A stretch of DNA of 64,000 nt from Chlorokybus atmophyticus (Eukaryota; Plantae; Mesostigma and Chlorokybus algae), in NCBI GenBank assembly GCA_009103225.1, contig RHPI01001517.1, positions 198,505 to 262,504 of the forward strand, written 5' to 3'. A program made the translations under genes and the position numbers. Under the pieces are notes generated by a model. That model saw nothing but the letters and a program-made list of their open reading frames with translations, was not told the DNA's origin and ran no database searches. Below are positions 8,163 through 56,686 of this stretch, one piece after another. Position 1 is the stretch's first letter. Every line of letters begins with the position of its first letter.

Positions 8163-8606
8163 ATGTTTATGCTTGACAACATGCATGTTCTATGCATATG
8201 CCTAAATGCAATTGCATGTTGCGTAACCTAAACGCCTGCAGCCTTGGCCTTGCCTTGCTGTCCGTTGCAGGGGTACAAGTGCGTCACTGGCGGATGTGGA
8301 GGCGGGGCTGTAGAGCACTGTCCGGTCTACATCCGCACTGCTCACACCCATCAACGCACCTGCCAGCTCTCACGACCACCTGTGCCTCTTCCCTTCCCTC
8401 CTTGCGCACTCCCTGCTTGCCCCAGATATATTTGGGAGCTGGCGCCAGCTGTCGACAACCACGTTCACCTTGCATAGCACATAGCATATAGCATAGCCCC
8501 GCCCCTGGCCTATTCTAGCCGTTAACTTGTGTCTAATGTGTTAGGTTGGTGTTGGCTTGTTAAGGCTGTGCTTGCTCAGAACTTTTCATTTATATATCCT
8601 ATACAT
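8163..8606 (+). repeat. 5' pseudo-LTR (direct repeat) of the Penelope-like element
   Basis: Aligns by eye to 12192-12646 (ATGCTTGACAACATGCATG...CTCAGAACTTTTCATTT) with scattered substitutions. Confidence 0.9.
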
Positions 8607-11377: not shown

Positions 11378-11818
11378 CAGTCTACCCCCGTTAAAAGACT
11401 TCGCTTTAAGGGAATAACCCCGTTAACATCATCGTTTTGCAAAAGACCGATCGTTTTACAGGCAAATATCTTCGGTTAGTGGAATAGTCTTGTACGTAAT
11501 AAGACTAATGAGAAGGCTTGAAATTGTAAGTGGGGTCAGTCTTATAATGGGGGAATACTTTGTTAACAGCATAACTATTTCGCTGATATTAGAATAAACA
11601 ACACCTTCAACAATACATGCCATGTATGATATTATATAATATATACAAAAAAATATAAATTTTATTTTTGCACGTTAGCATATAATGACGTGGTTTAAGG
11701 TTATCAGTCAATACCCCCATTAACAGAATATATATTCTTATCAACGCCAAGAGAATAACCCCGTTAGTGGAATGAAAAGCTGAAGGATAAACGTGATTCT
11801 TGTAACGGGGGTAGACTG
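11378..11818. mobile_element. MITE, Tc1/mariner-pogo type, inserted in the RT thumb region
   Basis: TIR CAGTCTACCCCCGTTA (11378-11393) / TAACGGGGGTAGACTG (11803-11818). TA duplication at 11376-77 and 11819-20. Interior is AT-rich and noncoding. Excision restores the RT frame V-C-T-R-I-Y-S-K. Confidence 0.92.
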
Positions 11819-12191
11819 TACCAGGATCTATAGCAAGCTGAGAGAACCACGGTTCGCTGGCATTCCTGCGAGCACCGCGCCCAGATTCCAACATTGCACG
11901 CAATGCAAAGATGAATGTGGTAGTGTCACAATGCTTCAGGTTCATGCGCTTGTCCACATATCATGGTCATTTTGTGTAGGAGATGCACCGGCTCCTGCAG
12001 GACATGACCAACATGGGCTACAACAGACGACGCCTCATCTTCAAGCTGCGAGCGGTGATGTAGAACAAACCAATTCACATGTTTGATTGCACCTACAGAC
12101 ACTTGTTCACGTTGCTCGTGGCTGACCCTGCTGGGAGGTGAGGTAAGTGTCTGAGTTGCTAGCGGGGAGCATGAAGTACTATGCCCGCTAC

Positions 12192-12646
12192 ATGTTCATG
12201 CTTGACAACATGCATGTCCTATGCCTATGCTTATATGCAATTGCATGTTGCGTAACCCTAATAATCGCCTGCAGCTTTTGGCCTTGCATTGCTATCCGTT
12301 GCAGGGGTACAAGTGCGTCACTAGTGGCTGTGGAGGCGGGGCTGTAGAGAACTGTCCAGTCTACATCCGCAATGCTCACGTCCATTAACGCACCTGCCAG
12401 CTTTCATGACCACCTGTGCCTCTTCCCTTCCCTCCTTGTGCACTCCTTGCTTGCCCCTGGTATATTTAGGAGCTGGCGCCAGCTGTCAACAACCACGTTC
12501 ACCTTGCATAGCACATATAGCATAGCCCGGCCCCTGGCCTATTCTAGCCGTTAGCTTGTGGCTTGCTGTGTCTAATGTGTTAGGTTGGTGTTGGCTTGTT
12601 AAGGCTGTGCTTGCTCAGAACTTTTCATTTCTATACCCTATACATG
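12192..12646 (+). repeat. 3' pseudo-LTR (direct repeat) of the Penelope-like element
   Basis: Direct repeat of 8163-8606, directly downstream of the RT C-terminal region. Confidence 0.9.
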
Positions 12647-12940: not shown

Positions 12941-15900
12941 ATGGCTCTCGCAATGTCTTCCGCTATGTGCATGCCCACCACCACTGCCAAGACCGTCTCC
13001 GCTAGGCCTGCTCTGAAGCTAGTCTTAGGACAAAAGGTGAGAGACTGTCGTGTGAATATCGACAGGTACGGTAATGTTTCTTCTTCATTTGTCACTGACT
13101 GTGGTTGCCCCTCCTGGTTACAGGCCTCCCCTATGCAGAGCGCTTGGGCGTCTTTCGCTGGTGCACGCTTCTGCCTCTCCTCAGGCAGCAAGAAGAACAT
13201 AAACCGCCTGGTCACATGCGCCAAGCCAGCTGAGACTAAGCTCCAATATACGTAAGTTGTTGCTTGCTACGACTATTGTGTTGCTCTCTGCCTGTGATGT
13301 GGATGTTCAGTGCACGTGCGTCTGCAAAATTGTGTATAACGCATGTGTAACATGCCATATCCATGTCCATGTGTATTCACACATGCATTGTGCACACCAT
13401 CATTTTATGCTTGTGTCTGTCACGTCCATCGTCGCAAATTTTACACGGTGACTGACTAAGGACTGAGGGACTGACTGGTGCCTGAGCCTGCCTGAGCCTG
13501 CCTGTTGCTGCCTGCAATATTACTTTTGGACTGTTGGGTTTGCCGTTGGCTTAAGTGGACTGACGCAGACGGCCGTGGGCCGAAAGTGGTTGTCAGTGGC
13601 ACTAACCGGCCGAGAGTTGTCAACCAGTTACCCTTTGGTCGATGTGCACAGACGGCCGTTGACCGGTAGTTACGGACAGCTGACAGCAATAGCCGGCAGT
13701 TTCTTTGCCGTTACACTGCTGTTAATATGTGACCCTTGCCGTTTGCCAAAAGTTGGCAATTCTTGCCGTAAGCCAACACTAACATGCCATGCAGCTTGTA
13801 CAAACCTTGGACTGATTGTTTGGTCTTGCACCTAAAAGCCCACAATATACACAATGTACGGGCAGTGGTGAGAGTATGTCCACTTACAACTGAGCAGCCG
13901 ACTTGCGCATGAAACTATCCTATAACATTGAGTCTAGCTGTCGGACTCATGCGCAGCTTGTCAACCCGTGGTGCCTGCCTAAGAACTCCTCCTCAAACCC
14001 CCTCCTCCTGTTCCTCCTTCGACGAGTCTTCTGCTTCAACGCCGGAGTCATCTTTATCCGCTGCTTCGCTCGCTGACAGTACAGCGGCTACTTCGTCCTT
14101 CAGCTTGAATGTCAGCGCCTCGCCGTGCACGCGCATGCGCTTGATGGTCGCTTTGAGAGTGACCACCTGCATTTGGTAATGCTGTAAGAGTGGCGTGCTG
14201 CCAGAGGACTAGCCCATCAGCATACACACGCTTACCTCGTCTTCCGCTTTGTTGCACTCCGCCAGGCAGACAGTCAGCCTGCCGCGCTGCTCTTGGTTCA
14301 CTCTGACCAACATGGCAATCTGCAAGCATACTGCTTAATTACCGCTGGAAACATAAAACTAGGTCATAGACCCGTTCGTTTGACTCCGCAGCTTCTCTTT
14401 TGCGACTTGTGAGCTCCCGCAAGTAGAAATAGGCTGTGCATTTGCGAGATTGGTCATGCTGTTCATGTGCATGACACTGGAGGTTGTGCATGAGGGTGTG
14501 CATGTCGTATTGACAATGTATGTCAAGTGCAAGATACTTGAGGCTGTGCATGTGCAAGATAAAAGAACCCTAGCATGTGGCATTGACAGTGCATCGTAAC
14601 CCACCTTGGTTATGCCAGTCTTGTTTGGTCCCTTCAATCATGTCGCCGTGGTCGCAGCTGCTGGTGGGTCGGATTTTCTTAGAGGCAGTATTGTGGTGTG
14701 CCTTTGCCCACTCGGATGGGGAGCCCTGTAAGATATCGCCCGAGTCACTGTTGTCATTGGATGTGCCCTTGGTAGTCTTGGTGGGGTTTGACACCGAGGA
14801 CACCCCTCCGGCACCCTGCCCGCCCTGTGCGAACATGGAATTCATCCCGGACCTCGACCACAATGCCCACTACGCCCCTGGCAGCGCCGCCAACGATCTT
14901 CCAAACGCCACATACCCTCGGCATCACGCCCCTGTAAGGGCATAGCTTGGCGGAGCTATCAATGGTGTTTTCATGCGCAGGGGGACTGACATTGCCAGAG
15001 TTGTCAATGGTACGAACTGCCATTGCCATTGTACAAAGGTACCATTTCAATGGTACCTTTGTATAATGCCTATACCTTGGGGCAAAGGCATCTTCGTACC
15101 ATTGAAACGGTTCAATCAGAATATATATATATATATATATATATCCAGACTCACCCTGGACGTTCAATGGCTCGATCGTACCATTATAATGGTACGACGG
15201 AGCCAGTGACTGGCGGCCAAGTTTCCCGCCTCTGGCATGCAGCGGTAGCGGTAGCGGTGGCGGTGGCGGTGGCGGCGGCGGCGGCGGGTGTGCGTGTTGC
15301 TGGATATGATGCAGGTTACATTGGCGACACCTGTGTCGACGTTAGTAGTGAGATATGGGAGTCCTTTGTCCGTATTGCCACATGCGCTTCGCCACACGCA
15401 GCTCGGTCTACATGCACATTATTAGCAGCAGGGTGTGCAAGCAGATCAAGCTGTATGTCGGCCAGCGTCCATTACAGTACGATGCGGGTCATGTTGAACC
15501 GGGGAGTTCGATCCAGGATGCTCACATGCTTGATGCTGAAGGATTCCTTCAGGAGACACACGCACAGCAGCAACAGGAGGAGGAGGAAGTGAACGAGGGC
15601 TTTCGATGTGTGCGTGTGCCTGAGAAACCTGTGGCACGCCAACATGGAAGTGGAGGCGTCCCTTCGCACGCGTCGGAATCCAGGTGGTATGGCTCTGAGC
15701 ATGCTCTTGCAGTGGCATTCGTGCAGTGCAACAACGGCCAAGGCCTGTCGGCCTCCGACATGGGGCGGATCATCAAGTGCATCCGAAATGCACACTTCCT
15801 GACGGAAGACCTCCAGTGGGAGACCGGTGTGCATGCGGCCAGCTACCTCCGGACCACGATTGCTTTCTCTCAGTCTGAGGTGTGTTCACGGTGTGCGGTG

Positions 15901-18900
15901 CATGTGCTTCAACCATCAGAGCCATGTCACATATGCACATGCGAGTGTGCTGCCGTATCAGAACTACGTGACGGCTGACCTGCGCAAGCCCGGAGACCCT
16001 GAGGATCAGGACATCTGCGTCACATATATGCCGGCCAAGGTCTGTGAAATGCAGTACCTAATGCAGTATCGATGCAGTATCTATTCTGAGGCCAGCATAG
16101 TAAGTAATGCTCTTGGTCGGAGCAGGTATGGCTCGCGCGGTTGTATGGCAATCCACATGCCGCCAATGGCTTCAATCTCCAGTACACTGGTGACGAGCAC
16201 AGCTTTGGCCATCCTTCCACGGGCGATTGGTGGAAGGATGTGGAGGTGGATTTGAGGAGAGAGGTGGGGGAAGCGTCCTACTTGGCGCCTGCCATTCTGT
16301 ACAGTGACAAGACCACGCTGGACAGCGCGGGCAAGCGCTCTGGCTACCCTCTGATGGCATCGCTTGCCAACTACAGTTGGGACATGTATGCTAGCAACAT
16401 GGGGGTTGTTATGATAGCGCTTCTGCCGGTGGTTCACGCAGTGGCCGGGCATCCCACCTGGGCGCAGGGCAAGGAATCGTTCTCCATTCGGAAACGTGAG
16501 ATTTTTCATGACGCTTTGAATGTAGTGTTAGGGGATGTGAAGCGGGCGAGTTGGGAAGGTCTGCAGCTCATCGACCCGAATGGCATCGAGCGTCGTGTGT
16601 TTCCCGCGCTTGCCAACTACATCAGCGATTTGCAGGTAGTGGGCATGAATGGTTGTAACCGGATGCAGCCCGCCAGCAAACAGTGCATGGAGGATGTTGT
16701 CAGTAGAACATCTGAGTTTGTCGTGTTGTAGGAGACTGCCACACTCGCACGCACTGTGTCGGGCAACCAAACACGACATCCTTGCGATGTTTGTCTCGTC
16801 ACCAAATCAGATCTGTTGGAGATGGATGAGGACCGGGAATTGAGAACCGAGGCCTTCTACACACCAGCAATACGTCAGCTGCGGGCGGACCTGCATAGCG
16901 GTGTTAGGAATGCACGCCAGACAGCCAAGGCTTTCAAAGAGCAGCACTCCATGCATGTCGAGGAGGTAATGGTCAAATTACCGGCATTCGTGAGGATGAA
17001 TGGCTTTCCGTGAAACCAGGCAATGTGGTTTGGCAACAGAATGCACTGTGGGGTTGGCGACAGTCGCGGGTGCCGGGAGCTGACTGCTACTCTCGTCTTG
17101 CCCCTGACGCAATGCATGTGCTGGGAGGCATCATTGACCACCTGCTTGCTGCTGTGTACGACGCCGCGAAGGAACGAATGCGTCCATCCACGAGACAGAT
17201 TCTGCAGGCCAGGCACGTCTTTGGTGTTGCTTTTGTGTTGAACACAAAAGCCAACAACACGTGCTCACGAGCAGATGTGCACAGGCTGAATGCATGCAAG
17301 GCGACTCTGCGGGTTTCGCACTTCAAGGCACCCACAAGCACAGTAGATTTCTTCCTGTCCGACCACTCCTTTCAGGTGGTGGAGAAAGTGGCGGTGCTGC
17401 AGCTGCTGCCGGTCCTCGCAGACGGTTTGCTGCTCGACAGTGAGGGCAACGATTTCTTCACCATTGCTGCCGCATCGCTTGCCCAGTGGAACAAGAAGTT
17501 GCTGAAGGCGCATGAACACACAAGAGAGACCCTGACCACAGCCGACAACGAGCTGGCTGCCTTCAAAGCTGCAGTGTTGCATCCGCTGCTGTCGTCATAT
17601 TTTGCACAGAAGTCAGGTTGGAAGATCGAGAAGATGCATCAGCTCACTCATTTTGGGCCGGCAGTTGTCAGCAGTGGACACCCAGATTGGTTCAGCGCCA
17701 ACCGCATGGAGCAGACGCACGCCCAAAATATTAAACGGTGGGCGCGTGGTGGCAACAACCGGGACTACCAGGCACGTATCCTGAAGGCATGGAGCTGTGC
17801 GGAATATGTGAGAGAGGATGGCATGGTCGTGGATCCCGAGATGCGCTCGGTCATGGCGCAGGCAGTGCTGTAATGTCATGGAGAAGACGGACAAGTTGCT
17901 ACGGATGGATGTGCTGACAAGGAGGGAGTCCAGCCCGTACTGGAGCGGATCTGCGCGTAGCCGCCAAGTCGCCTTGAAGACTCCATTTGCCGACAAGCTG
18001 CCTGCCACCCTGGACAGCTGGTTGAGGAGGGAACAACTGGAGTTGGCCGACGGGTGGCGTGCTGTTCGCGTGGTGAACGGAGGCGCAGCGGTGTACATGA
18101 CATCAGGAGTCAGCATGGCGCGCGCAACTGGGATGTTCCATGGGCGGCCTTGGTTCTCTACACTTGAGTTGGAAGGTAATGAGGACGGTGTGAACGTGAC
18201 GTGGTGGGCTCAGGCACTCTTTTTTTTGCGCGTGGTGGTGTGGGGTGGTAGCGGCGAGCGCGTGTGGAAGGAGGTCGTGTTTGTCCGCTGGTACATGAAG
18301 CTGGATGTGACGAGCGACACAAAGTGCATTGCTCTGGAATGGGAAAAGCGTCGAGGCGGTCCACATCTCGATGTCGTGACTCTGGAGCAAGTAAAAGGCA
18401 TTGTCCAGCTGCTCCCCATGTTTGACAAGGACAGCGCCCGTGTACAAGAGGGCAAGTATTGGGTGAACGTTCACTGCACTTCCACGTGACACATGTACTT
18501 GTCTCACTACTCTCAGTTTGGAGCATATCAGTCAGTTAGGCATTGCTAATCGTATGCTAAGACTTTTGCATGTGGACGTGTACAATACCAGGCAGCTGTC
18601 ACTGCACAACTGTCACCACAATCAAATGATCCATGCAACATTCAACAACAAGTCCGCCGTGTGGCATTAAGCATCAATACAGTGCACCACACTCAAGCCT
18701 CATAGTTCCATGACACAGGAGGGTAGTCACAGCGCATATCCATTGTTTCAAGCATGAGACGCCCTATGCACTCCGCCATTGCGGGAGGAACTGCATTCGC
18801 TATGGAAACGGCCGAGGTCATCCATGGCACTCCCAGCGCTGTTTGCCACGCAGCAATGCCGCCCCTGGTGCTTGGAAGGCCATAGACCGGGTACATCTGC

Positions 18901-21900
18901 TGTGGCGCGTTTGATGTCACGATTGTCTTCTTCGCGCTAGCGGACAGGTGCGGCGATAGCAGTCCAACTGCCTTGCCCGCGTGCGAGCAGCGTGCTGGTG
19001 GGGTAGCTACCACTGGCTGTGTCTCAAACAGACGGTGTCGGAAAGTTGATAGGCCAAACATCGTGCCACAAAGGGACGGATTGGGTCTGAATGAGGAAGC
19101 TGCTCCTGGCACATTCTCAATCACAAACTTGACCTGGCTTGCAAGCAGCAGACGTCGGACGAGCAGTATCATATGCTGGTGTCTCCAGGATGTGCCATGT
19201 GCCGCCCGTTGAGGTGCCGGGATAGCACCTGAATAGGCCTGGCATGGTGGACTGGCCCAGATGAGCTCGTACTCGCTCAGCTCTCCTGCACTCAGGGTGC
19301 ATACATCGCGGTGTATGAAGGGCAGCGGGTACTCAGAGGAGGGACTTATGTCCATCCCGGTCACGTCAAAGCCTGCGTGGTATAGACCGCCACTGGCACC
19401 GCCACCGCCGCAGAATAGGTTGAGTGCCCTTGGTCTGCGTGTGCGTCCCAGCTTGTTGTCAAATGGCGTGTATGTGGTCAAGGCTGGCCGCGGTGCTGGC
19501 CAGGGGCTAATAATGATGCCGTCCGGGCTTACTTTGCGACTGACGTTCTCCCCTCCGGCGCGCAGAACATGGCGTGCCCCGTCAACTGATGTGTACGCGA
19601 ATACGTTGTGCCCTTTGAAGTTGATGGTTTGTGGTCGATCACCGTCATCGAATACTATACGGTGCTGCCCTGCAAAGACATTTTCCATTGCACCATGCAT
19701 ATATGATGCGTTCTCAATCTCGCACGCCACAAAGCGATGCTGACCTGACGCTTGCTTGAATGATTCCACAACGCCCGCATACCATTCCCCATCCAGCGGC
19801 CAATGCACCATGACACTCACACCGATCAGCTGCTCGCATCCCAACTTAACTGCGTTCCGCAGCCGATGCAGTGCGCTGTCCAACGGTCGATGGTCTGCCT
19901 CCTCTACAGCGGCCAGGGGATGGAACTGCCCACGCCCACACCGTGGAAGACTGCTCTGAATGCGACAACAGCTTCAACATGCATAACATGCAGTGATACC
20001 TTGCGGTCCACTCTGCCGAATTACCTCCACAGCATCTACCACATGTTCACTAACCACATGTCCTGGTGTTGTCTATGTGGAGAAGCGCATGGGTTCCCCT
20101 CGCCACTCGAAGCATGAGCGCGAGCACGATTCGCACACGCACTGCACGCAATGGAAAAACTCGGGTTCCTTGCACAGCACTTGGCCGAGGCGGCAGCCAA
20201 ACACGTCGACATTGTGTGTGGTGTGATGCCAGCAAGCAGCACTAAAACCGTGGCACACTGTCTGCACTCGCTGGCATTCGGTCAAGTGTGCTCGCATTTG
20301 CTACCTACGGCCATTTGCACATACGTACGCATTGCATTGTGGGCACACCAAGCATGGTCTCCTAGGTGAGGGTGATTCAACTGCTGCCGCCGACATCATG
20401 AAAAATAGGAATCGGCACGGCTGCCCACAAACTGAGCGAGACTTTAGGGTATGGGCATCAATTTAGGGTTGCCAGCTTACGAACCCTAAATGGGTCAAAC
20501 TTCAAGTGAAGCACGACTGTACCTTATACGCTATTGCAGTACCATGCATGGTACTACATCAACATGAATGGTACTCTATCTGTTAATGGTACTACAGTAC
20601 AAGGATACTCGCATACTACCACGATCGTAGAGTAATACTGTGCTGTCATGCCATGGAACCCAGAGCGCTGTCCGAGTTTGTTGCTGTCAACCACGCTCTA
20701 AACCAGCGAGGTATGCAAGCCATGCACTGACTCATGCGCCGGGCAGTCATCATACACATGTACAGCCAATGCTTCTAACAACAGCAGATCTCTGGTGCAC
20801 CATGCACCATGCTGCAACTATACATGTACCTACATGGTTCACAGGAAGCCAACACAAAACTACAATACATGCACAATTGGCATCAAGGCGGGGGCCAAAT
20901 CACCGCCGACACGTTGGCGTCTTGCATCAGGCGTGGCGACCAAAACGGGTGAGGTTGCTTGCAGAATGGACACGCTTGTAGATTCTTTGATTTATTTGCC
21001 ACAGTCTTCTGATGTGCTATGATGCAGACATGGCACATCGCTTTCTTGCAACAGGGCGTCTCCCCATCCGGGGGGGGGGGTGGCTCTTCAATGCGACAAA
21101 TCAGCACACATGGTGCACGCGGGTGTGCAAGCTGCCTCTGCCACCAAACTCTGTTATCGCGTCGCAGGCGTAGCGACTCCCATCTGAATGGCGCAGCATA
21201 ACGCTCCACTGCCTGCTCGATCACCTGACGCCCATCTGCCGCCATACACCACCTGCTGGTCTTGGTGGTCTCGTCCAGCATGCGTTCATCCAGGCCCTCG
21301 ACATGGCTGTCGTCACTCGTGTACTCCCCCGCATCGTCATTTTCTTCGAGCTTCCACAGAATCAGCTCGACGTGCCGTATGACATACAGCCACTGCCAGC
21401 CAAAGCATGCCAAGTACAGCTCGAATGGTTTTACTTGCCACCCAGTATGTTTGCTCAGGTAGTGGCACACATCTCGACCCGCATTAGTCGACATCGACAG
21501 GTACATCTGCTGCAGCAGGTCGAAGTTCTGCTCCGCAGATAGCTCTTGCACATTGCCGGGGTGCTGCGGCAGCAACAACACCATCATATCGAGGACGGCG
21601 AGGGGCAACAACGTACTACGGATGGCCATATCGTGTATGGGTTCCAACCACGGCCAATCCCCAGAGGTCTGTTTAGACCGCATTCTCCGCGTTTGCTCCC
21701 ACTTATTGCAAACTTTCGTCACCCACCTCGAGGCATGCCGCATGCGGTGATGCAGCGCGTCTTGGGCGTACTGTAGGGTGATCAACTCCTTTGCACTACG
21801 AGTCAGCCCCCCAAAGCGTCTGCGCGTCGGTGCTTTGAGCTTAGGCAGCTCGTGCCGCACCGGCTGTCTCTCTGGACGATGCTGAGCAGCCACTTGACGC

Positions 21901-24900
21901 TGTAAACCCGCCTGTGCCTACTCAGGACACACAGTCAGCCCCAGTGAGGCTTCAAGGCGCTGTGCTTCTTCTAATGTTGTAACGATGCCTCACCTTTCCT
22001 TTTTTGGTCCTGTCAGCGTCCTTTGTTCCAACAACCTTCTTCTTTTTTTTTTTGTCACCCTGCACATCCTGGCAGGCGCTCTCCGTGGCACTGTCACTCA
22101 GAGGAGGTAAGGCGTTATCTTCTTGCTCCACAGCCTTGCGCTTGTTGGTTGCCTCCCGTTCCTCCACGACCTCATGTTGCTTCATGAGGTCGAGCATGAA
22201 GCCTTTGTCTTTCAGCGCAGCTTTCAGGACACCTCGATCAATCTCTTTACCAACAAGACAGGCTGGGATCAATGTGGCAAGCTTAGAGGGAGAGGGCGAG
22301 CTACAGCTGCTTCTTGATGGAGATGCCTCCGGATGGTCAGAGTGCGGTGGCAAGTGAGTCTCCGCGGCAGGAAGGGAGGGTGCTGAATTGGGATTGCGAG
22401 CATGTGGCTGTGGTTGAGGGGAGGCAGGATGTGCAGAACACTCGGCTACTTCTTGCCTAGCACACGAAGGCGAGGCCTGAGGCGTTGGCGCAGCACTCTG
22501 GGTCACAGCCGGTGGTAGCGGGGAATTGGCAACGCCATGCCGCCACTCTCCGATCAGGTGTGTTACCTCCGGTGGCACTTCATGCATAGGCCACGACCAC
22601 TGTTCGGTGCTTGCAGGCTTGAGGAGCCAAAAGTGTGCTTCTGGCTCATCAGGAGCAGTGTTGCCCACCACCAGGACTGAGTTGGGGGCTTCTTTATTTC
22701 CAACCCAAACTGCGCTGCCGGGCCGTGGCACCCACTCCCCATGCTCGCGCTGAACGGTCACGCAGCCAATCAACAAGCCCAGCTTGTTGGCAAACATGGT
22801 CATCTGCAGGTGCTCGACGTACACATCTTTTCTCCGCACGATCTGTCGCACCTTGGCCATGGCTAGGTCAATGTTGCAGTTGATATCAGCCAACATGGTC
22901 GCAGGCAGTTTGTCGTAATACTGCGCCATCTCTCCCGCGGCACCAGTGGCTCTGCAGAAGTCTAGGATTCTGCTCGCCACGCCTGCATCGACAGCCTTGG
23001 CGGTGATTTTGCGGAGAGTGTGCCCCCTGCCGTCGTCGTCCATGGTGTCCAGCATGGCCCAAAATCTGCTCGAGCTGGGGCACTTGTGATCATCCAGGAC
23101 ACTTTGCGCTATGGATGGCCTGGCGCGAAATACACAATGGTAGAAGCAGTTACCATCCGTTGGCGCATTGAAGTGGTCCCATGAGGCGAGCTGGCCACCT
23201 AGCATGACTGATGGCCGGCGGGTTGCGGCCAGCTCCTCTGATGACTCGCTGGCAGGTGGTGACCCCTGCTGCATGCGCATACAGCACTCACATGGTGTGT
23301 CCAACTGTGGACGGCAAGAGTCATAGTGACTGATAAAGTACCTAAGTTTGGGGCAGACTGCCGGCTTCAACTTGCAGCGGGTGGGGTAAGGTAGGTGCAG
23401 AAGCCACATCGGTTGTTGCATTGTGCTGTGGTCTCGCCGGTGGCGGCAAGAAGGATTGTTGCCCCGCAATCACCGGTGCTGCTCGTGGAGGGAATGGCAG
23501 TGCACGAAGGACTGGTGCCGCGGAAGGTGGTTGCGCTCTGGCTGGGAGGGGAGCATGAGCTGCAGGTGAGACCACTTGTGCATGCAGCAAGGGGGGCCTG
23601 TATACAGGACCCAGGATAAGATGGCTCACAATGTTGCAAACGACAAATATAAGCTTATGCAGTGCCTGACGCATTGTTACCAAGGCACGAGCATAAAAGA
23701 CAGCGACGTACCTCAATGGCCCGTGGGCTGCATGGAGCAGGGAAAGCCATGGGGGCTGACAAGGTGGTATTGGCTGCACTCTCCCCGCCACCCTCAATGG
23801 CAGACTCGTCACGGAGCTCTTGAGCCATGGGCACATCATGCGCCACTGCCCCAATGGACATGTCGGGATTCAACAGGCCAACATGCATGTTAAACTGATG
23901 CCGCATTGCCGCCGCGCCCATCAGCAAGTGGGATTGAAGGACCAGTTGATGGGATTGAATCCAGGCTTGCATAGGAGCTCCAACAGGACTTAGTGCACTG
24001 TGGTGCTGTCAACCAATCACATGTGGGTTAGCTGCATGCTTGCGACACTGCAATTGCAATAGTCAACTGCGTCACACCGTCATCAGTTGGTTGCTTCGAA
24101 CAGTCACTGCGGCATTGCTGGTTGATGCACGAATGGTTGCATGGACTGCGTCATTGCTGGTTGATGCACTATTGGTTGAATGCCGGACGCATGGCCACGC
24201 GCTCCTGTGCTCAAACCCAACCTACTTCGTTCGGCACGCGCGCGCGACTTCGCACGCTCACGCACATCCTAGCATGGAAAGGTAGGCATGCATTGGAGCC
24301 GACATTGCAGTCAACATGCACAGCGAGATTGGCAACAACATACCGCCGCCCAGCTCTGTCTATCTGCTCTTGCTTCCGCAATGTCGGCTTGACTGTAGGG
24401 TGGGTATGGGTGAATAGTGGAGGCCTGCAGCCACGCTACATATATCACATGGACTGCGCTAAAAAACAAATTGCTCTTGCAAGGAAATGCATGTGACTGT
24501 TGAGCGTACCTCTGCATTCCTTTGTGCTTGTTCCCACAGCCGCAACTGGTCCCGCATGGTTCTGACAAGGGGCTCCAAGGACTGCAGCTCCTGATCCACT
24601 CCCTGTTGCAGAAAGCGAGCCACCAAGCAGCTCTCTGTGTGAAGATGGTCTTTAATGGCTTGCCTGCTGGTTTGTCCAATGTTGGTGATGCATGTTGGAC
24701 AGCCCCATTGCTGACGCCTGCCATGATCCATGACGTGGCGACCGGTAGTAGCTGGCTTCGCTGCTTGAACTCTTACGACCACAACTTCTCGCAAGATGTG
24801 CCACGCCGCCGCCGCCGCCGCCGCCTCCTCCGACTCCTGGTCCTCCGCCTCCTAGTCGAACCCAGGCCCATCAAGCCTGACATTCGACCCGTCATCGACC

Positions 24901-27900
24901 TGGTGCCCCTGCGTGCCATCATCCGGCCATCAATGAAGCGTGTTTGGGTGAGTGCATGCTAACTCCCATTTGGGCTGATCGAGCAATGCCTCTGTCGTAC
25001 CATGGATGGTACGACAGAGCCATTGTACGGCAATCGCTGGGGTTGGACGAGAGATGCCTCTGTCGTACCATAAATGTTACGACACAACCATTGGTAACAA
25101 TGGTTGTACGAAGCATGCATGGCACGAATGCATAAGTCGTACCATCAACCATAGGAGCAAGGACGCACTACAAGTGCGACTCTAGTGCGGGACTCTAGAC
25201 GTTCAAAACCGCCTCATTTTCGTTTTCGCGCCTCATACATTCGGGCGGGCCAACCGGCGGCGGCAGCGTTGGAGGCGGCAGCGCCACTTACAGCTAAACA
25301 GGCGGCACCCGACTATCAGTTGGAGAGATGCCTCGTGGTCCATCCGTAAGTGCACCTCGTCGTGGAGGTCGGCGCCAGTTGTCCACATTGCCCCCAGTGT
25401 TCAACCAGGCAACCGTCGCCAACCAATCGCAGCAAGACCCCGCGCTAACGCCCAGCACATCACAACAACTCCACCTGACACCGCAGTCGCAAGGGCAAGC
25501 TAGACTGCATGCGTTCTTGATGCACTGTGCACGTTGCTTCTTGCTCAACTTCTAACTTGGATGCTTGCTTCTATCATGACTAGCACAGTGACTCACTGCA
25601 TGCGTTCTGGATACACTGTGCACGTTGTTCTTCTTTTGCAACTGTGAGGGTTGCATCTTTCATGGCTGGCAGCATGACTCATGTGGTTGTGCTTGCAGAG
25701 GGTCGATTGGAACCCCCAACCCAAACGCATTTGGCCGTGACGTGGCAACCTCGGCCGTCAGCAACCCTTCCCCAAGCAAGTGGAAGATTGGCAACGAGGT
25801 AAGCACTGTGTGACACTGTGACACTGTGTGTATGTGTGTAACGGATTGTTCTTCTGTGGACAGCATTTGCGAGATGCCGTCGTTGAAATCATAAACGGCC
25901 ACTGGGTAGAGAGCCACGTTTATCCCAAGGAGGACACTATTCGTAACGTCATGTGTCAGGTGCTGTGAATGCTTCATGACCGCACTGCACCGTGACACTG
26001 ACCAACCTGCCCGTGACAGGTAGTTGGCTTCGACCATGACGACGAGGCCGATGCGGCCAAGTTCTATGAGGTGTACTGGACTCCCAAGGAGTGCCCCTTC
26101 CACTGGAGTGTCGCCCTGAAGAAAGCTACGCAGGTCCGGTCTGAGAACGTCACCAAGATCAAGCATGTCCTTGAGAAGGAGTACAAGTGGACACTGTTTA
26201 ACAGCAACAAGCGCAAGTGAGTTGGGTCCCTCACCACCATGTCTGCTATGCAACACTGCCTTCTTACTCAGCCTCCATACACACGTACTCATCTCGCCTA
26301 TTGTAACCGATTCAATCAGGCACATCGACGCCCTAATGGACCCCGAGACCCAAAAAGCCCAGATGCGCAACGCGCTCCAAAGTAAGTCACAGGCACTATT
26401 CTAGCCTGGTGCAGGCTCAACTTGAACTATCTATTTCGTGACTAATGCCTTGTCGGTATGACTGTCGCAGACAAGTCATGGCGGAGATTTGAGGTGACCG
26501 ACACTGCAGACCCGGAGCGGAGGAGATACATCCATGAATGGGGCAATCCCATAATCTGGCAAATGATCGTGCAATGCTGGTCTTACGCCGTCACTACACC
26601 TGGTCGCCGGCAGCTGACAGTCAACCACCTCGCATACCTGTTGCTTACGGTGAGCACTCTGGACTCCATCATTAGCAATTCAGGAACGCTATAGCCCCAA
26701 ACTACAGGCTTGCAGACGCGTTGCAGTGAATAGTGGCTTTCGATGCCACTAAGACATGCCTGTAAACTACGCAGGTGGAGCGCATCCTAAAGGGCAAGGA
26801 TGGAGACCCTCTCCTAGCTGCCAGCATAGACACACATGAAGAGTACCTCAGCGAAATCAACACCATGATCATGTCAATGAAGCGGGAGATGAGGCAACGG
26901 TACGCAGCCCTCCAGCCATTCACCCTTGTGAAACGCCGCACTGCATCTTGTGTCGAATACCTGAAAGATCCCAATCGGCGCCGGCCGCAAGAGACAGCAG
27001 CTCGTGACCCGCTCGCTGAGGCAGAAGCGGCATTTGATTGGCTGGCACAACCGTTTGAGGAGGAAGAGCAAGCTCCGGCGTCTCCTCCACAGGCCCCAGC
27101 GCGTGGTGCTTTGTTCCGTAGTGACGACACCAGCGATGATGGAGAGGAGCTGTAGCGCAGTTGGTAGTCCGTTTAGCCGGTAGTGTACATAGCTACAAGG
27201 CTCTTGTGACTGAGTGTTGTGCATCTTAAACCAGCTCAGTCAATCGTCATTATGCTCATGCACATCAATACTTGCATCCCTATGATATACAACAGAACTG
27301 CATTCGAGTCACATAATCGAACTACAAGCCTTGGCAAGTGACTGAGAGACACTGTACACATTTCAGGTACATGTACACAGCACAGGCACATAACAATGCT
27401 GGAAGTCAGTGACAGTCGCGTGTAGTCAAGCTATGCAAATACATATGACGACAGTTAGGCATTGGTCTCCTTCAGTTGTTAAAGAATGCCTTATTTTGTC
27501 GATAACTACCTAGTTGGTGCTAGTGAATTAGGCTTAGTCGCCTGCGCTGGACTGGTGTGTAACCTGCAGGTGCCTGTCACATAGGCTGAGTCACCTAGGT
27601 AAGACTGATGTGTAACTTACAGGTGCCCGTTGATTAGTTGTAGTCACCTAATAAGGCCTGATGTGTAACTAACAGTTGCCTGTAAATTACACAAAGTCAT
27701 TTGTTAAGGCCTGGTGTGTGACTAACAGGTGCCTGTTCATTCTATAAAGTCACCTGTTAAGGCCTGATAGGTAATTAACAGGCGCCTGTTAGTTAGACAA
27801 AGTCAACTGTTAAAAACTAAATTGCAACAAAAAGGGCCTTACAGTAACGAAAGTTACTATTAGGTCCCTGTATCAAGATTACAGGTGGCCTGAGCCACGA

Positions 27901-28269
27901 CAGTCTAAATTAGCGTCCTCAGGTGCACGGCCGTAGCCAATATTTAGTCGGCCGGCAGGGAAAACATATTGCGACGATGTCTATGCCCAAAACTCTGTTT
28001 GTATATGTACACATGTGCATGTGCAAATGTGCACACGCATTTGTTCGTCACAAGCAGCATGCCACTCTCGCCCCACCTGATACTCGTGTGGTTCTGTGTA
28101 CAGCTACATCTGCTCCCAGTGCGGCTACCTGTTCATTGAGAAGTCCGAAGGAAAGAGGTTCGACGACCTGCCAGAGGACTACAAGTGCCCTCGCTGCGAT
28201 GCCCCAAAGGAGGCCTTCGAGATGTCTGACGGTGACAGCACTGAGTCTCCTAATGTCCAGAGTGGTTGA
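12941..28269 (+). CDS. Plastid-targeted rubredoxin-like protein, join(12941..13036,13124..13251,28104..28269); intron 2 contains the giant transposon
   Basis: Exon 1 MALAMSSAMCMPTTTAKTVSARPALKLVLGQK is transit-peptide-like. Exon 2 ends CAA TAT AC|gtaagt and exon 3 begins tacag|C TAC ATC TGC, giving in-frame TYICSQCGYLF...FDDLPEDYKCPRCDAPKEAF. This has two CxxC motifs and the rubredoxin F.DLP..W/Y.CP.C pattern. Confidence 0.9.
13993..14845 (-). CDS. Transposon accessory gene A, multi-exon, coiled-coil/acidic, unknown function
   Basis: GT-AG exons IAMLVRVNQEQRGRLTVCLAECNKAEDE| and VVTLKATIKRMRVHGEALTFKLKDEV...EEQEEGV*. Upstream low-complexity exon ~14580-14845. Divergent from the transposase; start uncertain. 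Confidence 0.5.
15355..18489 (+). CDS. Plavaka-family transposase, intron-containing, with N-terminal C2H2 zinc finger; frame break near 17871
   Basis: N-terminus CPYCHMRFATRSSVYMH. Core HPSTGDWW, PAILYSDKT...GYPLMASLAN, NYISDLQ|E, HQLTHF...G...FS...EQTH match recalled Plavaka transposase motifs. The C-terminal PWFS...WWAQALFF...VFVRWY domain is in a shifted frame. Confidence 0.8.
18693..20399 (-). CDS. Tudor domain-C5 cytosine DNA methyltransferase fusion (transposon cargo), possibly with N-terminal Cys-rich exon
   Basis: Tudor: LIGVSVMVHWPLDGEWYAGVVESFKQAS|GQHRIVFDDGD, with an in-frame ~75-nt intron. MTase motifs: I LNLFCGGGG, IV WASPPCQ, VI IENVPG, VIII RHRLFE, X IANAVPP. The upstream exon structure (19950-20399) is tentative. 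Confidence 0.88.
20883..21899 (-). CDS. RING-type zinc finger exon/ORF (transposon cargo)
   Basis: C-terminal CVLIC...PCCKKAMCHVC...ACPFC RING-like Cys/His pattern in a 336-aa open frame. Confidence 0.7.
   Translation of the reverse strand, partial: RQVAAQHRPERQPVRHELPKLKAPTRRRFGGLTRSAKELITLQYAQDALHHRMRHASRWVTKVCNKWEQTRRMRSKQTSGDWPWLEPIHDMAIRSTLLPLAVLDMMVLLLPQHPGNVQELSAEQNFDLLQQMYLSMSTNAGRDVCHYLSKHTGWQVKPFELYLACFGWQWLYVIRHVELILWKLEENDDAGEYTSDDSHVEGLDERMLDETTKTSRWCMAADGRQVIEQAVERYAAPFRWESLRLRRDNRVWWQRQLAHPRAPCVLICRIEEPPPPPDGETPCCKKAMCHVCIIAHQKTVANKSKNLQACPFCKQPHPFWSPRLMQDANVSAVIWPPP
21952..23285 (-). CDS. OTU-like cysteine protease domain exon (transposon cargo)
   Basis: APTDGNCFYHCV (OTU catalytic D-x-x-C box), YVEHLQMTMFANKLGLLI, and downstream EAHFWLL (catalytic His-like), followed by a Pro/Ser-rich and basic tail. 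Confidence 0.75.
23345..24900 (-). CDS. Upstream exons of the putative ZnF-OTU-RING gene (C2H2-like finger plus coiled coil)
   Basis: WGCPTCITNIGQTSRQAIKDHLHTESC followed by LQQGVDQELQSLEPLVRTMRDQLRLWEQAQRNAE|gt. Further GT-AG exons (...SPRAIE|gt, ...GSLPQTQ|gt) have a phase compatible with the OTU frame. Start not resolved. Confidence 0.5.
25328..27155 (+). CDS. Transposon accessory gene E, multi-exon, unknown function
   Basis: Consecutive GT-AG exons: ...SKWKIGNE|HLRDAVVEIINGHWVESHVYPKEDTI|VVGFDHDDEADAAKFYEVYWTPKECPFHW...|HIDALMDPETQK...|KSWRRFEVTD...LLLT|VERILKGKDG...DGEEL*. Conserved in the second copy. Confidence 0.65.
27547..27811. repeat. Subterminal tandem array, five ~53-bp units
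   Basis: Unit starts at 27601, 27653, 27706 and 27759 (plus a degenerate first unit). Consensus AAGGCCTGRTGTGTAACTAACAGGTGCCTGT-(variable)-AGTCACCTGTT. Also present inverted at ~51730-51995. Confidence 0.85.
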
Positions 28270-51565: not shown

Positions 51566-54500
51566 CGTCGCAATATGTTTTCCCTGCCGGCCGACTAGAT
51601 ATTGGCAACGGCCGTGCACCTGAGGACGCTAATTTAGACTGTCGTGGCTTAGGCCACCTGTAATGATACAGGGACCTGATAGTAACTTTCGTTACTGTTA
51701 GGCCCTTTTTATTACAATTTAGTCTTTTACAGTTGACTATGCCTAACTAACAGGCGCCTGATAGTTACCTATCAGGCCTTAACAGGTGACTTTATATAAA
51801 TGACAGGCACCTGTTAGTCACACACCAGGCCTTAACAAATGACTATGTGTAATTTAAAGGCAACTGTTAGTTACACATCAGGCCTTATTATGTGACTACA
51901 ACCAATCAACGGGCACCTGTAAGTTACACATCAGTCTTACTTAGGTGACTCAGCCTATGTGACAGGCACCTGCAGGTTACACACCAGTCCAGCGCAGGCG
52001 ACTAAGCCTAATTCACAAGCACCAACTAGGTAATTATCGACAAAATAAAGCATTCTTTAACAACTGAAGGTGACCAATGCCTAACTGTCGTCATATGTAT
52101 TTGCATAGCTTGACTACACGCGACTGTCACTGACTTCCAGCATTGTTATGTGCCTGTGCTGTGTACATGTACCTGAAATGTGTACAATGTCTCTCAGTCA
52201 CTTGCCAAGGCTTGTAGTTCGATTATGTGACTCGAATGCAGTTCTGTTGTATATCATAGGGATGCAAGTATTGATGTGCATGAGCATAATGACGATTGAC
52301 GGAGCTGGTTTAAGATGCACAACACTCAGTCACAAGAGCCTTGTAGCTATGTACACTACCAGCTAAACGGACTACCAACTGCGCTACAGCTCCTCTCCAT
52401 CGTCGCTGGTCTCGTCATTACGGAACAAAGCACCACGCGCTGGGGCCTGTGGAGGAGACGCCGGAGCTTGCTCTTCCTCCTCAAACGGTTGTGCCAGCCA
52501 ATCAAATGCCGCTTCTGCCTCAGCGAGCGGGTCACGAGCTGCTGTCTCTTGCGGCCGGCGCCGATTGGGATCTTTCAGGTATTCGACACAAGATGCAGTG
52601 CGGCGTTTCACAAGGGTGAATGGCTGGAGGGCTGCGTACCGTTGCCTCATCTCCCGCTTCATTGACATGATCATGGTGTTGATTTCGCTGAGGTACTCTT
52701 CATGTGTGTCTATGCTGGCAGCTAGGAGAGGGTCTCCATCCTTGCCCTTTAGGATGCGCTCCACCTGCGTAGTTTACAGGCATGTCTTAGTGGCATCGAA
52801 AGCCACTATTCACTGCAACGCGTCTGCAAGCCTGTAGTTTGGGGCTACAGCATTCCTGAATTGCTAATGATGGAGTTCAGAGTGCTCACCGTAAGCAACA
52901 GGTATGCGAGGTGGTTGACTGTCAGCTGCCGGCGACCAGGTGTAGTGACGGCGTAAGACCAGCATTGCACGATCATTTGCCAGATTATGGGATTGCCCCA
53001 TTCATGGATGTATCTCCTCCGCTCCGGGTCTGCAGTGTCGGTCACCTCAAATCTCCGCCATGACTTGTCTGCGACAGTCATACCGACAAGGCATTAGTCA
53101 CGAAATAGATAGTTCAAGTTGAGCCTGCACCAGGCTAGAATAGTGCCTGTGACTTACTTTGGAGCGCGTTGCGCATCTGGGCTTTTTGGGTCTCGGGGTC
53201 CATTAGGGCGTCGATGTGCCTGATTGAATCGGTTACAATAGGCGAGATGAGTACGTGTGTATGGAGGCTGAGTAAGAAGGCAGTGTTGCATAGCAGACAT
53301 GGTGGTGAGGGACCCAACTCACTTGCGCTTGTTGCTGTTAAACAGTGTCCACTTGTACTCCTTCTCAAGGACATGCTTGACCTTGGTGACGTTCTCAGAC
53401 CGGACCTGCGTAGCTTTCTTCAGGGCGACACTCCAGTGGAAGGGGCACTCCTTGGGAGTCCAGTACACCTCATAGAACTTGGCCGCATCGGCCTCGTCAT
53501 CATGGTCGAAGCCAACTACCTGTCACGGGCAGGGTCAGTGTCACGGTGCAGTGCGGTCATGAAGCATTCACAGCACCTGACACATGACGTTACGAATAGT
53601 GTCCTCCTTGGGATAAACGTGGCTCTCTACCCAGTGGCCGTTTATGATTTCAACGACGGCATCTCGCAAATGCTGTCCACAGAAGAACAATCCGTTACAC
53701 ACATACACACAGTGTCACAGTGTCACACAGTGCTTACCTCGTTGCCAATCTTCCACTTGCTTGGTGAAGGGTTGCTGATGGCCGAGGTTGCCACGTCACG
53801 GCCAAATGCGTTTGGGTTGGGGGTTCCAATCGACCCTCTGCAAGCACAACCACATGAGTCATGCTGCCAGCCATGAAAGATGCAACCCTCACAGTTGCAA
53901 AAGAAGAACAACGTGCACAGTGTATCCACAACGCATGCAGTGAGTCACTGTGCTAGTCATGATAGAAGCAAGCATCCAAGTTAGAAGTTGAGCAAGAAGC
54001 AACGTGCACAGTGCATCAAGAACGCATGCAGTCTAGCTTGCCCTTGCGACTGCGGTGTCAGGTGGAGTTGTTGTGATGTGCTGGGCGTTAGCGCGGGGTC
54101 TTGCTGCGATTGGTTGGCGGCGGTTGCCTGGTTGAACACTGGGGGCAATGTGGACAACTGGCGCCGACCTCCACGACGAGGTGCACTTACGGATGGACCA
54201 CGAGGCATCTCTCCAACTGATAGTCGGGTGCCGCCTGTTTAGCTGTAAGTGGCGCTGCCGCCTCCAACGCTGCCGCCGCCGGATGGCCCGCCCGAATGTA
54301 TGAGGCGCGAAAACGAAAATGAGGCGGTTTTGAATGTCTAGAGTCCCGCACTAGAGTCGCACTTGTAGTGCGTCCTTGCTCCTATGGTTGATGGTACGAC
54401 TTATGCATTCGTGCCATGCATGCATTCGTACAACCATTGTTACCAATGGTTGTGTCGTAACATTTATGGTACGACAGAGGCATCTCTCGTCCAACCCCAG

Positions 54501-56686
54501 CGATTGCCGTACAATGGCTCTGTCGTACCATCCATGGTACGACAGAGGCATTGCTCGATCAGCCCAAATGGGAGTTAGCATGCACTCACCCAAACACGCT
54601 TCATTGATGGCCGGATGATGGCACGCAGGGGCACCAGGTCGATGACGGGTCGAATGTCAGGCTTGATGGGCCTGGGTTCGACTAGGAGGCGGAGGACCAG
54701 GAGTCGGAGGAGGCGGCGGCGGCGGCGGCGGCGTGGCACATCTTGCGAGAAGTTGTGGTCGTAAGAGTTCAAGCAGCGAAGCCAGCTACTACCGGTCGCC
54801 ACGTCATGGATCATGGCAGGCGTCAGCAATGGGGCTGTCCAACATGCATCACCAACATTGGACAACCAGCAGGCAAGCCATTAAAGACCATCTTCACACA
54901 GAGAGCTGCTTGGTGGCTCGCTTTCTGCAACAGGGAGTGGATCAGGAGCTGCAGTCCTTGGAGCCCCTTGTCAGAACCATGCGGGACCAGTTGCGGCTGT
55001 GGGAACAAGCACAAAGGAATGCAGAGGTACGCTCAACAGTCACATGCATTTCCTTGCAAGAGCAATTTGTTTTTTAGCGCAGTCCATGTGATATATGTAG
55101 CGTGGCTGCAGGCCTCCACTATTCACCCATACCCACCCTACAGTCAAGCCGACATTGCGGAAGCAAGAGCAGAGAGACAGAGCTGGGCGGCGGTATGTTG
55201 TTGCCAATCTCTCTGTGCATGTTGACTGCAATGTCGGCTCCAATGCATGCCTACCTTCGCATGCTGGGATGTGCGTGAGCGTGCGAAGTCGCGCGCGCGT
55301 GCGGAACGAAGTAGGCTGGGTTTGAGCACAGGAGCGCGTGGCCATTCGTCCGGCATTCAACCAATAGTGCATCAACCAGCAATGACGCAATTCATGCAAT
55401 CATTCGTGCATCAAGCAGCAATGCCGCAGGTGACTGTTCGAAGCAACCAACTGATAACGGTGTGACGCAGTTGACTATTGCAATTGCAGTGTCGCAAGCA
55501 TACAGCTAACCCACATGTGATTGGTTGACAGCACCACAGTGCACTAAGTCCTATTGGAGCTCCTATGCAAGCCTGGATTCAATCCCATCAACTGGTCCTT
55601 CAATCCCACTTGCTGATGGGCGCGGCGGCAATGCGGCATCAGTTTAACATGCATGTTGGCCTGTTGAGTCCCGACATGTCCATTGGGGCAGTGGCGCATG
55701 ATGTGCCCATGGCTCAAGAGCTCCGTGACGAGTCTGCCATCGAGGGTGGCGGGGAGAGTGCAGCCAATACCACCTTGTCAGCCCCCATGGCTTCCCCTGC
55801 TCCATGCAGCCCACGGGCCATTGAGGTAAGTCGCTGTCTTTTATGCTCGTGCCTTGGTAACAATGCGTCAGGCACTGCATAAGCTTATATTCGTCCTTTG
55901 CAACATTGTGAGTCATCTTATCCTGGGTCCTGTATACAGCCCCCCTTGCTGCATGCACAAGTGGTCTCACCTGCAGCTCCTGCTCCCCTTTCAGCCAGAG
56001 CGCAACCACCTTCCGCGGCACCAGTCCTTCGTGCACTGTCATCTCCTCCACGAGCAGCACCGGTGATTGCGGGGCAACAATCCTTCTTGCCGCCACCGGC
56101 GAGACCACAGCACAATGCAACAACCGATGTGGCTTCTGCACCTACCTTACCCCACCCGCTGCAAGTTGAAGCCGGCAGTCTGCCCCAAACTCAGGTACTT
56201 TATCAGTCACTGTGACTCTTGCCGTCCACAGTTGGACACACCATGTGAGTGCTGTATGCGCATGCAGCAGGGGTCACCACCTGCCAGCGAGTCATCAGAG
56301 GAGCTGGCCGCAACCCGCATACGGCCATCAGTCATGCTAGGTGGCCAGCTCGCCTCATGGGACCACTTCAATGCGCCAACGGATGGTAATTGCTTCTACC
56401 ATTGTGTATTTCGCGCTTGGCCATCCATAGCGCAAAGTGTCCTGGATGATCACAAGTGCCCCAGCTCGAGCAGATTTTGGGCCATACTGGACACCATGGA
56501 CGACGACGGCAGGGGGCACACTCTCCGCAAAATCACCGCCAAGGCTGTCGATGCAGGCGTGGCGAGCAGAATCCTAGACTTCTGCAGAGCCACTGGTGCC
56601 GCGGGAGAGATGGCGCAGTATTACGACAAACTGCCTGCGACCATGTTGGCTGATATCAACTGCAACATTGACCTAGCCCTGGCCAA
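51566..56686 (-). mobile_element. Second, inverted and truncated copy of the giant transposon (right ~5.1 kb)
   Basis: Reverse complement of ~22853-27976, near-identical with scattered substitutions and small indels. Begins with TIR CGTCGCAA at 51566. Homology stops within the OTU domain at ~56686, shortly before an N gap. Confidence 0.95.

Follow-up and report, generated by a model that had tools for sequence, protein, structure and literature searches.

Giant transposons of algae that carry a methylase together with chromatin genes are already known, and why transposons carry enzymes that normally silence transposons is an open question. Plavaka elements, which occur in red and green algae, carry methylase-SET and 2OG genes; the literature compared also includes PMC13519894 and bioRxiv 2021.11.30.470311. 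Here we describe a Plavaka DNA transposon of Chlorokybus atmophyticus, located in a 64,000-nucleotide stretch of contig RHPI01001517.1 (the window, whose coordinates are used throughout). One of its genes joins a Tudor domain, a putative histone reader, to a compact C5-cytosine methyltransferase domain. The combination appears to be new: no Tudor-C5 fusion, no C5 cargo of a Plavaka and no MBD-inserted branch of such enzymes was found in the literature searched, which covered few subscription papers and not the supplementary files of the Bostrychia report and PMC12344493.

The initial annotation of this locus had pointed to the capture of DNA methyltransferases (DNMTs) by retrotransposons as precedent. 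Such cases exist, but a red-algal Plavaka and a brown-algal Sola, both with N4/N6 methylases, are closer. The giant Plavaka of the red alga Bostrychia (bioRxiv 10.1101/2025.02.11.637652) shares with the window element the Plavaka transposase, several accessory genes and giant size (17-19 kb there); its PAG2 likewise combines a DNA methylase with a chromatin domain, and its internal inverted-repeat arrays are proposed self-targets. However, PAG2 unites a PF01555 N4/N6 methylase with SET, whereas the window element has a C5 enzyme with Tudor, and we saw no ParB or 2OG gene in the latter but an OTU/RING-like gene instead. In Ectocarpus (PMC12477816), Sola1-1_Ec32, also a giant DNA transposon, encodes a prokaryote-type methylase and its transposase on opposite strands, although this methylase is of the N4/N6 type and is accompanied by ParB. 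The same report describes Gypsy-10_Ec32, a Tudor-bearing transposon that its authors call the first such; it is a retrotransposon, and its Tudor is not joined to a methylase. Fungal TET+ PlavakaB elements (PMC12730594) resemble the window element in having C(2)C and H(3)H between D and E of the transposase, a 2-bp target site duplication (TSD), cargo acting on 5-methylcytosine (5mC) and CATCA ends similar to CGTCG (2/5 bases differ), but their cargo erases or oxidises 5mC, whereas the window cargo is predicted to write it.

C5 methyltransferases are also found on the mobile elements SymbioLINE and SymbioDIRS, on those that carry charophyte Dnmt3 (PMC5890265) and on EpiLTRs (bioRxiv 10.64898/2026.05.21.726589), where a histone reader, a chromodomain, occurs with the DNMT; unlike the window element, these are retroelements with DNMT3-like or DNMT4-sister enzymes within polyproteins. 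The giant-virus Mariner-1_OLpv (PMC3627910) is a DNA transposon with a C5 methyltransferase, but it has a Mariner transposase, a restriction-modification pair and no reader domain. In green algae, ChloroDNMTs with PWWP (PMC12344493) have a similar reader-plus-DNMT layout. Finally, PHROG 363 phage enzymes belong to the same sequence family, with about 220-250 amino acids (aa) and a very short variable region, but are stand-alone prokaryotic genes.

The Tudor-methyltransferase gene is convergent with the transposase gene. Its main part is a 426-codon stop-free frame (18696-19973, minus strand), in which a Tudor signature is followed by C5-methyltransferase motifs I, IV, VI, VIII and X in order. 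The features of the gene, with the motifs read in frame, are:

20025..20399, minus strand: exon 1, Cys/His-rich and zinc-finger-like by eye, in the same frame from the ATG at 20399
19956..20024, minus strand: intron 1, GT...AG, 69 nt in the window copy, containing an in-frame TGA
19625..19835, minus strand: putative single Tudor domain of RDM15/PDS5 type, split by intron 2, matching PDB 7DE9
19802-19773, minus strand: WPLDGEWYAG (Tudor)
19670..19744, minus strand: intron 2, GT...AG, 75 nt, in frame and without a stop, splitting the Tudor domain
19652-19638, minus strand: FDDGD (Tudor)
18693..19436, minus strand: compact C5-cytosine methyltransferase domain, intronless, with motifs I, IV (Pro-Cys), VI (ENV), VIII (RxR) and X
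19415-19398, minus strand: FCGGGG (motif I)
19253-19239, minus strand: SPPCQ (motif IV, Pro-Cys)
19118-19110, minus strand: ENV (motif VI)
19073-19050, minus strand: LCGTMFGL
19040-19026, minus strand: RHRLF (motif VIII, RxR)
18836-18816, minus strand: LGVPWMT
18800-18783, minus strand: ANAVPP (motif X)

All motifs listed by the initial annotation are present in one open frame, and the gene runs, as it had proposed, from the ATG at 20399 to the TGA at 18693. Because the Tudor and enzyme domains share one frame with no stop between them, their fusion is independent of any splice; the full protein would have about 500 aa. Other copies of the gene were compared through the best-supported 40 of 208 variant rows in 18650-20420, which derive from contigs, not reads, of runs (X1, X2 and others) that may represent other strains; all variant counts below refer to these 40 rows. 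In X1 and X2, intron 1 exceeds that of the window copy by 22 nt and is therefore non-coding in those runs, and intron 2 holds 5 of the 40 variants (p 0.03). We infer that both introns are removed by splicing. The idea of a gene eukaryotised with introns holds insofar as two introns are indicated, both upstream of the enzyme domain, but that domain itself has none. The start of intron 2 nearly repeats the start of the following exon (GQHR in frame in both), as if from a tandem duplication. A contig of run X5, guessed to be RNA, covers 19732-19881 unspliced at depth 3; it may be DNA and was not used.

The enzyme part matches the phrog_363 (PHROG 363) DNA methyltransferase profile with E 3.5e-25, and Pfam PF00145 with E 1.6e-4 and 21.7 bits, slightly under the 22-bit cut-off. 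As the window protein and several relatives fall below this cut-off, surveys built on PF00145 can miss this methyltransferase branch. P203, E247, N248 and R273 are among the motif residues invariant over 140 homologues, and the fold predicted from 140 sequences has a predicted local distance difference test score (pLDDT) of about 80-98 across the enzyme part. When this fold was searched against 48,161 chains, ranks 1-17 were C5 methyltransferases (Z 16.2 to 12.1, with 16.2-14.1 for ranks 1-14), and the first unrelated chain followed at Z 9.8; the top match had a root-mean-square deviation of 3.6 over 214 aligned residues. In the fold alignments the best structural neighbours had 12-23% identity, and solved C5 methyltransferases including DNMT1/3 and MET1 had 12-22%. 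No eukaryotic DNMT appeared among the three matches at E <= 1 in a PDB sequence search, and the alignment of the family profile with DNMT1 was confined to motif I. The variable region is very short, with 77 residues between motifs VIII and X (short-family median 66). Regarding phage genomes, 319 records matched, the best rows being actinophage enzymes with 36-39% identity. On these sequence comparisons the enzyme is a member of the compact phage family, and not of DNMT1, CMT, DNMT3, DRM or DNMT5. The proposal of a phage/actinobacterial rather than a eukaryotic type is borne out by the phrog_363 match, the 319 phage records and the 12-22% identity to solved C5 enzymes. The enzyme is predicted to methylate cytosine at C5. 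The composition of the window and of the variants gave no hint of specificity, and no solved structure or specificity for PHROG 363 compact enzymes was found in the databases and literature searched.

The Tudor domain of Arabidopsis RDM15 binds H3K4me1 through an aromatic cage and an acidic pair (PMC8184781). The window domain matches the RDM15/PDS5C structure 7DE9 with E 1.3e-5, Pfam Tudor families match it weakly (E about 0.09), and in the predicted model this region has a pLDDT of only 26-55. The two halves flanking intron 2 match adjoining parts of the 53BP1 Tudor. With RDM15 numbering placed on the window domain by the W-Y spacing, W616, Y623, Y641, D643 and D645 correspond to W, Y, F, D and D at equal spacing once intron 2 is left out; without its 75 nt, F, D and D stand 18, 20 and 22 residues away from the cage Tyr, exactly as in RDM15. 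The 7DE9 match and the cage residues in register sustain the assignment to the plant PDS5/RDM15 kind, and the domain is predicted to read H3K4me1. RDM15/PDS5C is thus alike in its H3K4me1 cage and acidic pair, but has no enzyme joined to it and keeps E647.

Exon 1 of the window copy contains two premature in-frame TAG stops, at positions where essentially all the depth of X1, X2 and X3 has other letters (sense codons). A genetic code reading TAR as Gln was considered for these stops and dropped, since the other copies have sense codons there. In addition, the transposase frame is shifted by the lack of 8 nt at 17861 that are present in other contigs, and 16 of the 40 variants separate the window copy from nearly all read depth. 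Among the private coding changes of the window copy, 4/14 are synonymous (4.2 expected) and two are stops, whereas 14/21 coding variants of the other copies are synonymous against 6.65 expected for matched mutation types (P 7e-4); the latter counts are 12/16 without run X6 and 9/12 within the enzyme core. The stops, the transposase frameshift and the neutral-like private changes show that the window copy is dead and drifting, and from the synonymous excess elsewhere the lineages that spread look to have kept the gene under purifying selection. The C-to-T variants in 18650-20420 favour a 5' T (11/22 against 186/994 sites), which could reflect UV damage or a deaminase, in a small sample.

Plavaka elements are defined by a transposase motif set, a TSD of 2-3 bp and PlavakaA or PlavakaB termini (PMC12730594). 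The window element has the transposase residues D, D, C(2)C, H(3-4)H and E, inverted ends and a 2-bp TSD; its termini, CGTCG..CGACG, are neither CATCA..TGATG of PlavakaB (3/5 bases alike) nor TGT..ACA of PlavakaA. The element and its copies comprise:

13430..27976: Plavaka (EnSpm/CMCT) DNA transposon of 14,547 bp with inverted ends, CGTCGCAA...TTGCGACG
left 13428..13429, right 27977-27978: 2-bp TSD of sequence AT
15355..18489, plus strand: Plavaka transposase gene with introns (PF18759, E 4.5e-23, 82 bits against a cut-off of 26.3)
51566..56686, minus strand: second copy, truncated and inverted, corresponding to the right 5.1 kb of the element (98.2% identity over 5130 nt)

The inverted ends are 8 bp long (CGTCGCAA at 13430 and 27976), and the TSD AT rests on the sole insertion with both flanks, for which a chance match is 1 in 16. 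The transposase motifs occur in order as D at 16300 (YSDKT), D at 16618, CxxC at 16783, H-x3-H at 17631 and E at 17703. At 13429/13430 contigs of X1 and X5, and at 27976 contigs of X1, run from the window sequence into different flanks, marking other insertion sites. Alternative ends CATCG...CGATG with TSD TC were dropped, because CAT is not kept at these sites. The second copy shares the right end and lacks the methyltransferase gene. Together with the other insertion sites, this truncated copy indicates that the family is mobile and multi-copy, although contig depth is no measure of copy number. The cut-and-paste setting suggested for the gene is therefore confirmed by the Plavaka transposase, the inverted ends and the further insertion sites.

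The window contains 24 copies of the motif ATGGTAC, where 7.1 +/- 2.6 would be expected (0/100 shuffles reach 24). Fourteen of the 24 sites form three clusters, with inverted pairs, in three intergenic stretches ahead of element genes, and four more lie in the second copy. For GTACCA/TGGTAC, 13/15 sites fall within three 250-bp bins (0/20,000 random draws). The clusters are:

15007..15195: six ATGGTAC sites in inverted pairs, ahead of the transposase and the left gene
20539..20592: four ATGGTAC sites, lying 140-190 bp before the start codon of the methyltransferase gene
24997..25145: four ATGGTAC sites, arranged as inverted pairs, in the stretch that separates the OTU/RING-like gene from the right-hand gene

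Both VANDAL (PMC5735166) and red-algal Plavaka (bioRxiv 10.1101/2025.02.11.637652) are known to have tandem self-target arrays.

The homologue search returned 7431 matches, the five best being relatives of 280-344 aa, four with MBD. The best-scoring relatives have 280-490 aa, and a long insert sets their motifs VIII and X 122-168 residues apart; it matched MBD in 8/8 cases tested, five of them above the cut-off. The MBD-bearing compact C5 enzymes are P0001-P0005, P0122, P0123, P0213, P0222-P0224 and P0341; P0342, from the same branch, has a third reader type, an N-terminal CW zinc finger (E 7.7e-10). A tree of 71 rows (LG+G4), picked from the top matches with most short matches left out, groups the window enzyme, 11 MBD-type rows and 20 sister rows in one branch (98/89) against 39 short phage or bacterial rows. 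Two motifs shared with the window enzyme are present in 30/31 and 23/31 branch members versus 4/311 and 0/311 short proteins, and a DYPP-type tail in 10/11 MBD-type rows, 0/20 sisters and 0/311 short proteins. P0121, P0220 and P0221, of about 450 aa, each have two tandem compact C5 methyltransferase domains.

P0376 has a 100% match on a contig of a giant-virus bin, P0213 comes from Klebsormidium nitens and P0341 from Chromochloris; others are from Tara samples, one labelled 0.22-1.6. The Klebsormidium and Chromochloris genomes both hold giant-virus insertions. Those of Klebsormidium are described in PMC11244446. Among viral structures, a Pithovirus enzyme matches best (E 2e-18, 35%), the next having E 9e-10. 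Near the giant-virus methyltransferase, L377:15390-16331 encodes a P-loop protein that by eye resembles a packaging ATPase, although Pox_A32 did not match it. Of the 71 places where the nucleotide pattern of one branch motif matched across 185,579 prokaryote genomes, none was in a methyltransferase. Both branch signatures were found together at none of at least 374 loci from five scans; two of the three pattern matches in the scan that yielded P0376, and the single match of another scan, were set aside as chance. No locus of P0016 was found, and an Atlas search with P0004 gave generic family matches only. The Tudor-methyltransferase fusion was found in none of the best 120 and best 150 homologue matches; a search with the Tudor region scored 0/173 candidates, which is no proof of absence as it covered lengths of 234-746 only.

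In C5 methylation, S-adenosylmethionine (SAM) is held by motif I, the target cytosine is flipped out and held by ENV and RxR, the Cys attacks C6 and the methyl group passes to C5. The enzyme would act in this way, by SAM-dependent base flipping with a Pro-Cys nucleophile, and the Tudor domain would bind nucleosomes via its W/Y/F cage and two Asp. With so short a variable region, the enzyme may have a short or loose DNA target, the reader supplying reach, which would fit the way this branch has acquired readers more than once (MBD, CW and Tudor). In our view the gene, a multi-copy Plavaka accessory gene consisting of a Tudor reader and a compact C5 enzyme, quite likely works for the element: it would mark DNA selected by its chromatin, with the element's own copies as the most plausible target, and the element could in this way write DNA marks of its own. 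More tentatively, at somewhat less than an even chance, this chromatin-guided writer would act on the element itself, the ATGGTAC clusters would be the element's control sites and the OTU/RING-like gene product would be a partner that edits ubiquitin marks. Several observations weigh against these proposals. The window copy is a pseudogene, unable to make the full protein, and has also changed at conserved sites, for example the motif I Asp and the Pro after motif IV. At ungapped positions, E647 and Q654 of the RDM15 H3R2 pocket are replaced by Pro and Gly, and with E647 replaced the mark read may differ. The variant rows used are biased to well-supported ones. C-to-T variants are not CpG-enriched (6/22 in the variant rows, 8/48 between two element copies), the CpG observed/expected ratio is alike in element and host (0.75 and 0.74), and no CpG or 4-mer trace of self-methylation was found in the element.

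The lack of such a footprint would suit a protein acting in trans on host chromatin, its Tudor domain leading it to H3K4me1 gene bodies, where it would methylate host genes or prepare insertion sites; according to PMC8184781 and bioRxiv 2024.10.15.618488, H3K4me1 marks active gene bodies in plants and is read by this Tudor type. We regard this as rather unlikely, since genome-wide methylation would be costly for a parasite and in Chlamydomonas gene bodies are reported not to be enriched in H3K4me1 (bioRxiv 2024.10.15.618488). A passive cargo, that is, a host or viral gene picked up and hitch-hiking without benefit to the element, is very unlikely given the synonymous excess among copies, the gene's own ATGGTAC cluster, as other element genes have, and the retention of both cage and catalytic residues. 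As for the clusters, their core is GTAC, which we take to be the SBP/CuRE core. They could be host SBP-box transcription factor sites that switch the element on and are unrelated to the methyltransferase, as the GTAC core, often CGTAC, and the position of the clusters ahead of all element genes alike would allow. The strict ATGGTAC and the paired inverted layout exceed a GTAC core, however, and the self-target arrays described for VANDAL and red-algal Plavaka speak for another function, so that we consider host sites conceivable but doubtful.

A similar weighing applies to the origin of the enzyme, which the initial annotation had taken for a horizontally acquired phage or bacterial methyltransferase. 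This stands for the phage family at large, but the closest kin form a eukaryote-associated group with a giant-virus member, which makes a direct bacterial or phage transfer less likely than a route via giant viruses or other algal mobile DNA. The enzyme's probable ancestry lies in a phage-family branch adapted to eukaryotes, which is also present in giant viruses and algal genomes. Some points count against this descent: support for the branch on a 42-row subset under a mixture model was moderate, at 82 (quick) and 84/80 (careful, LG+C20 PMSF), the window row is long in the tree, the diagnostic motifs were counted in the very sequences from which they had been picked, and a giant-virus context was shown for 1/31 relatives only, in a bin whose capsid match is sub-threshold (E 6e-4) and in which no A32 (Pox_A32) match was found. 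Transfer straight from an actinobacterial phage or bacterium, with no link to the MBD-bearing and giant-virus relatives, would draw on this weaker mixture-model support, on the 36-39% identity to actinophage enzymes and on the lack of the large insert, since 77 residues are closer to the median of 66 than to the 122-168 of the relatives. It is nevertheless improbable, because the eukaryote-associated group scores best, three shared motifs are nearly absent from the 311 short proteins, and the 71 pattern matches in prokaryote genomes include no methyltransferase. Under descent from the eukaryote-adapted branch, the window enzyme, which lacks the large insert of its MBD-bearing relatives, may have either lost it or branched before its gain; the tree does not decide.

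A broader and speculative scenario, which we think unlikely as a whole, is that of a compact branch adapted to eukaryotic nuclei that would have moved among giant viruses, algae and transposons, repeatedly gaining readers (MBD, CW, Tudor). Here its transposon member would write 5mC onto H3K4me1 chromatin, so that a parasite writes part of the methylome, controlled by ATGGTAC arrays and a ubiquitin-editing partner. The MBD-bearing relatives would be minimal read-and-write 5mC enzymes. The Tudor-methyltransferase is a small, selected reader-writer carried by a multi-copy element; with a histone mark and DNA sites both proposed for it, its specificity, targeting and benefit are directly testable.

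The remaining features of the element are:

13993..14845, minus strand: probable intron-containing gene, coiled-coil-like with an acidic end, from a three-frame reading; no Pfam match, boundaries approximate
20883..24851, minus strand: probable multi-exon OTU/RING-like gene, motifs by eye; no Pfam match
26017..27155, plus strand: exons of a further element gene; no meaningful Pfam match
27552..27813: subterminal tandem array, 53-bp unit, 4.9 copies

The OTU/RING-like gene has a C2H2-like 5' exon (24462-24851), motifs like those of OTU proteases (DGNCFY near 23157, HFW near 22635) and a RING-like C-terminus (20883-21110). Its matches are weak (viral OTU, E 0.61; TRIM30 RING, E 0.25), and a single-sequence model has a pLDDT of 37. 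The second copy of the element stops within the OTU-like gene, where unrelated sequence takes over, followed by a gap (window 56687-58400, 60979-63444); the frames 58149-58400, 60979-61284 and 62137-62451 have no Pfam match and may be part of another mobile element. About 100 bp off the right end of the full element lies a rubredoxin exon (28081-28269, PF00301, E 7.8e-8), and the insertion may interrupt or abut a host gene. Further to the left, window 8160-12645 holds a decayed Penelope-like retroelement with GIY-YIG (8913-9137), reverse-transcriptase-like motifs by eye (10733-11360) and direct repeats about 4 kb apart.

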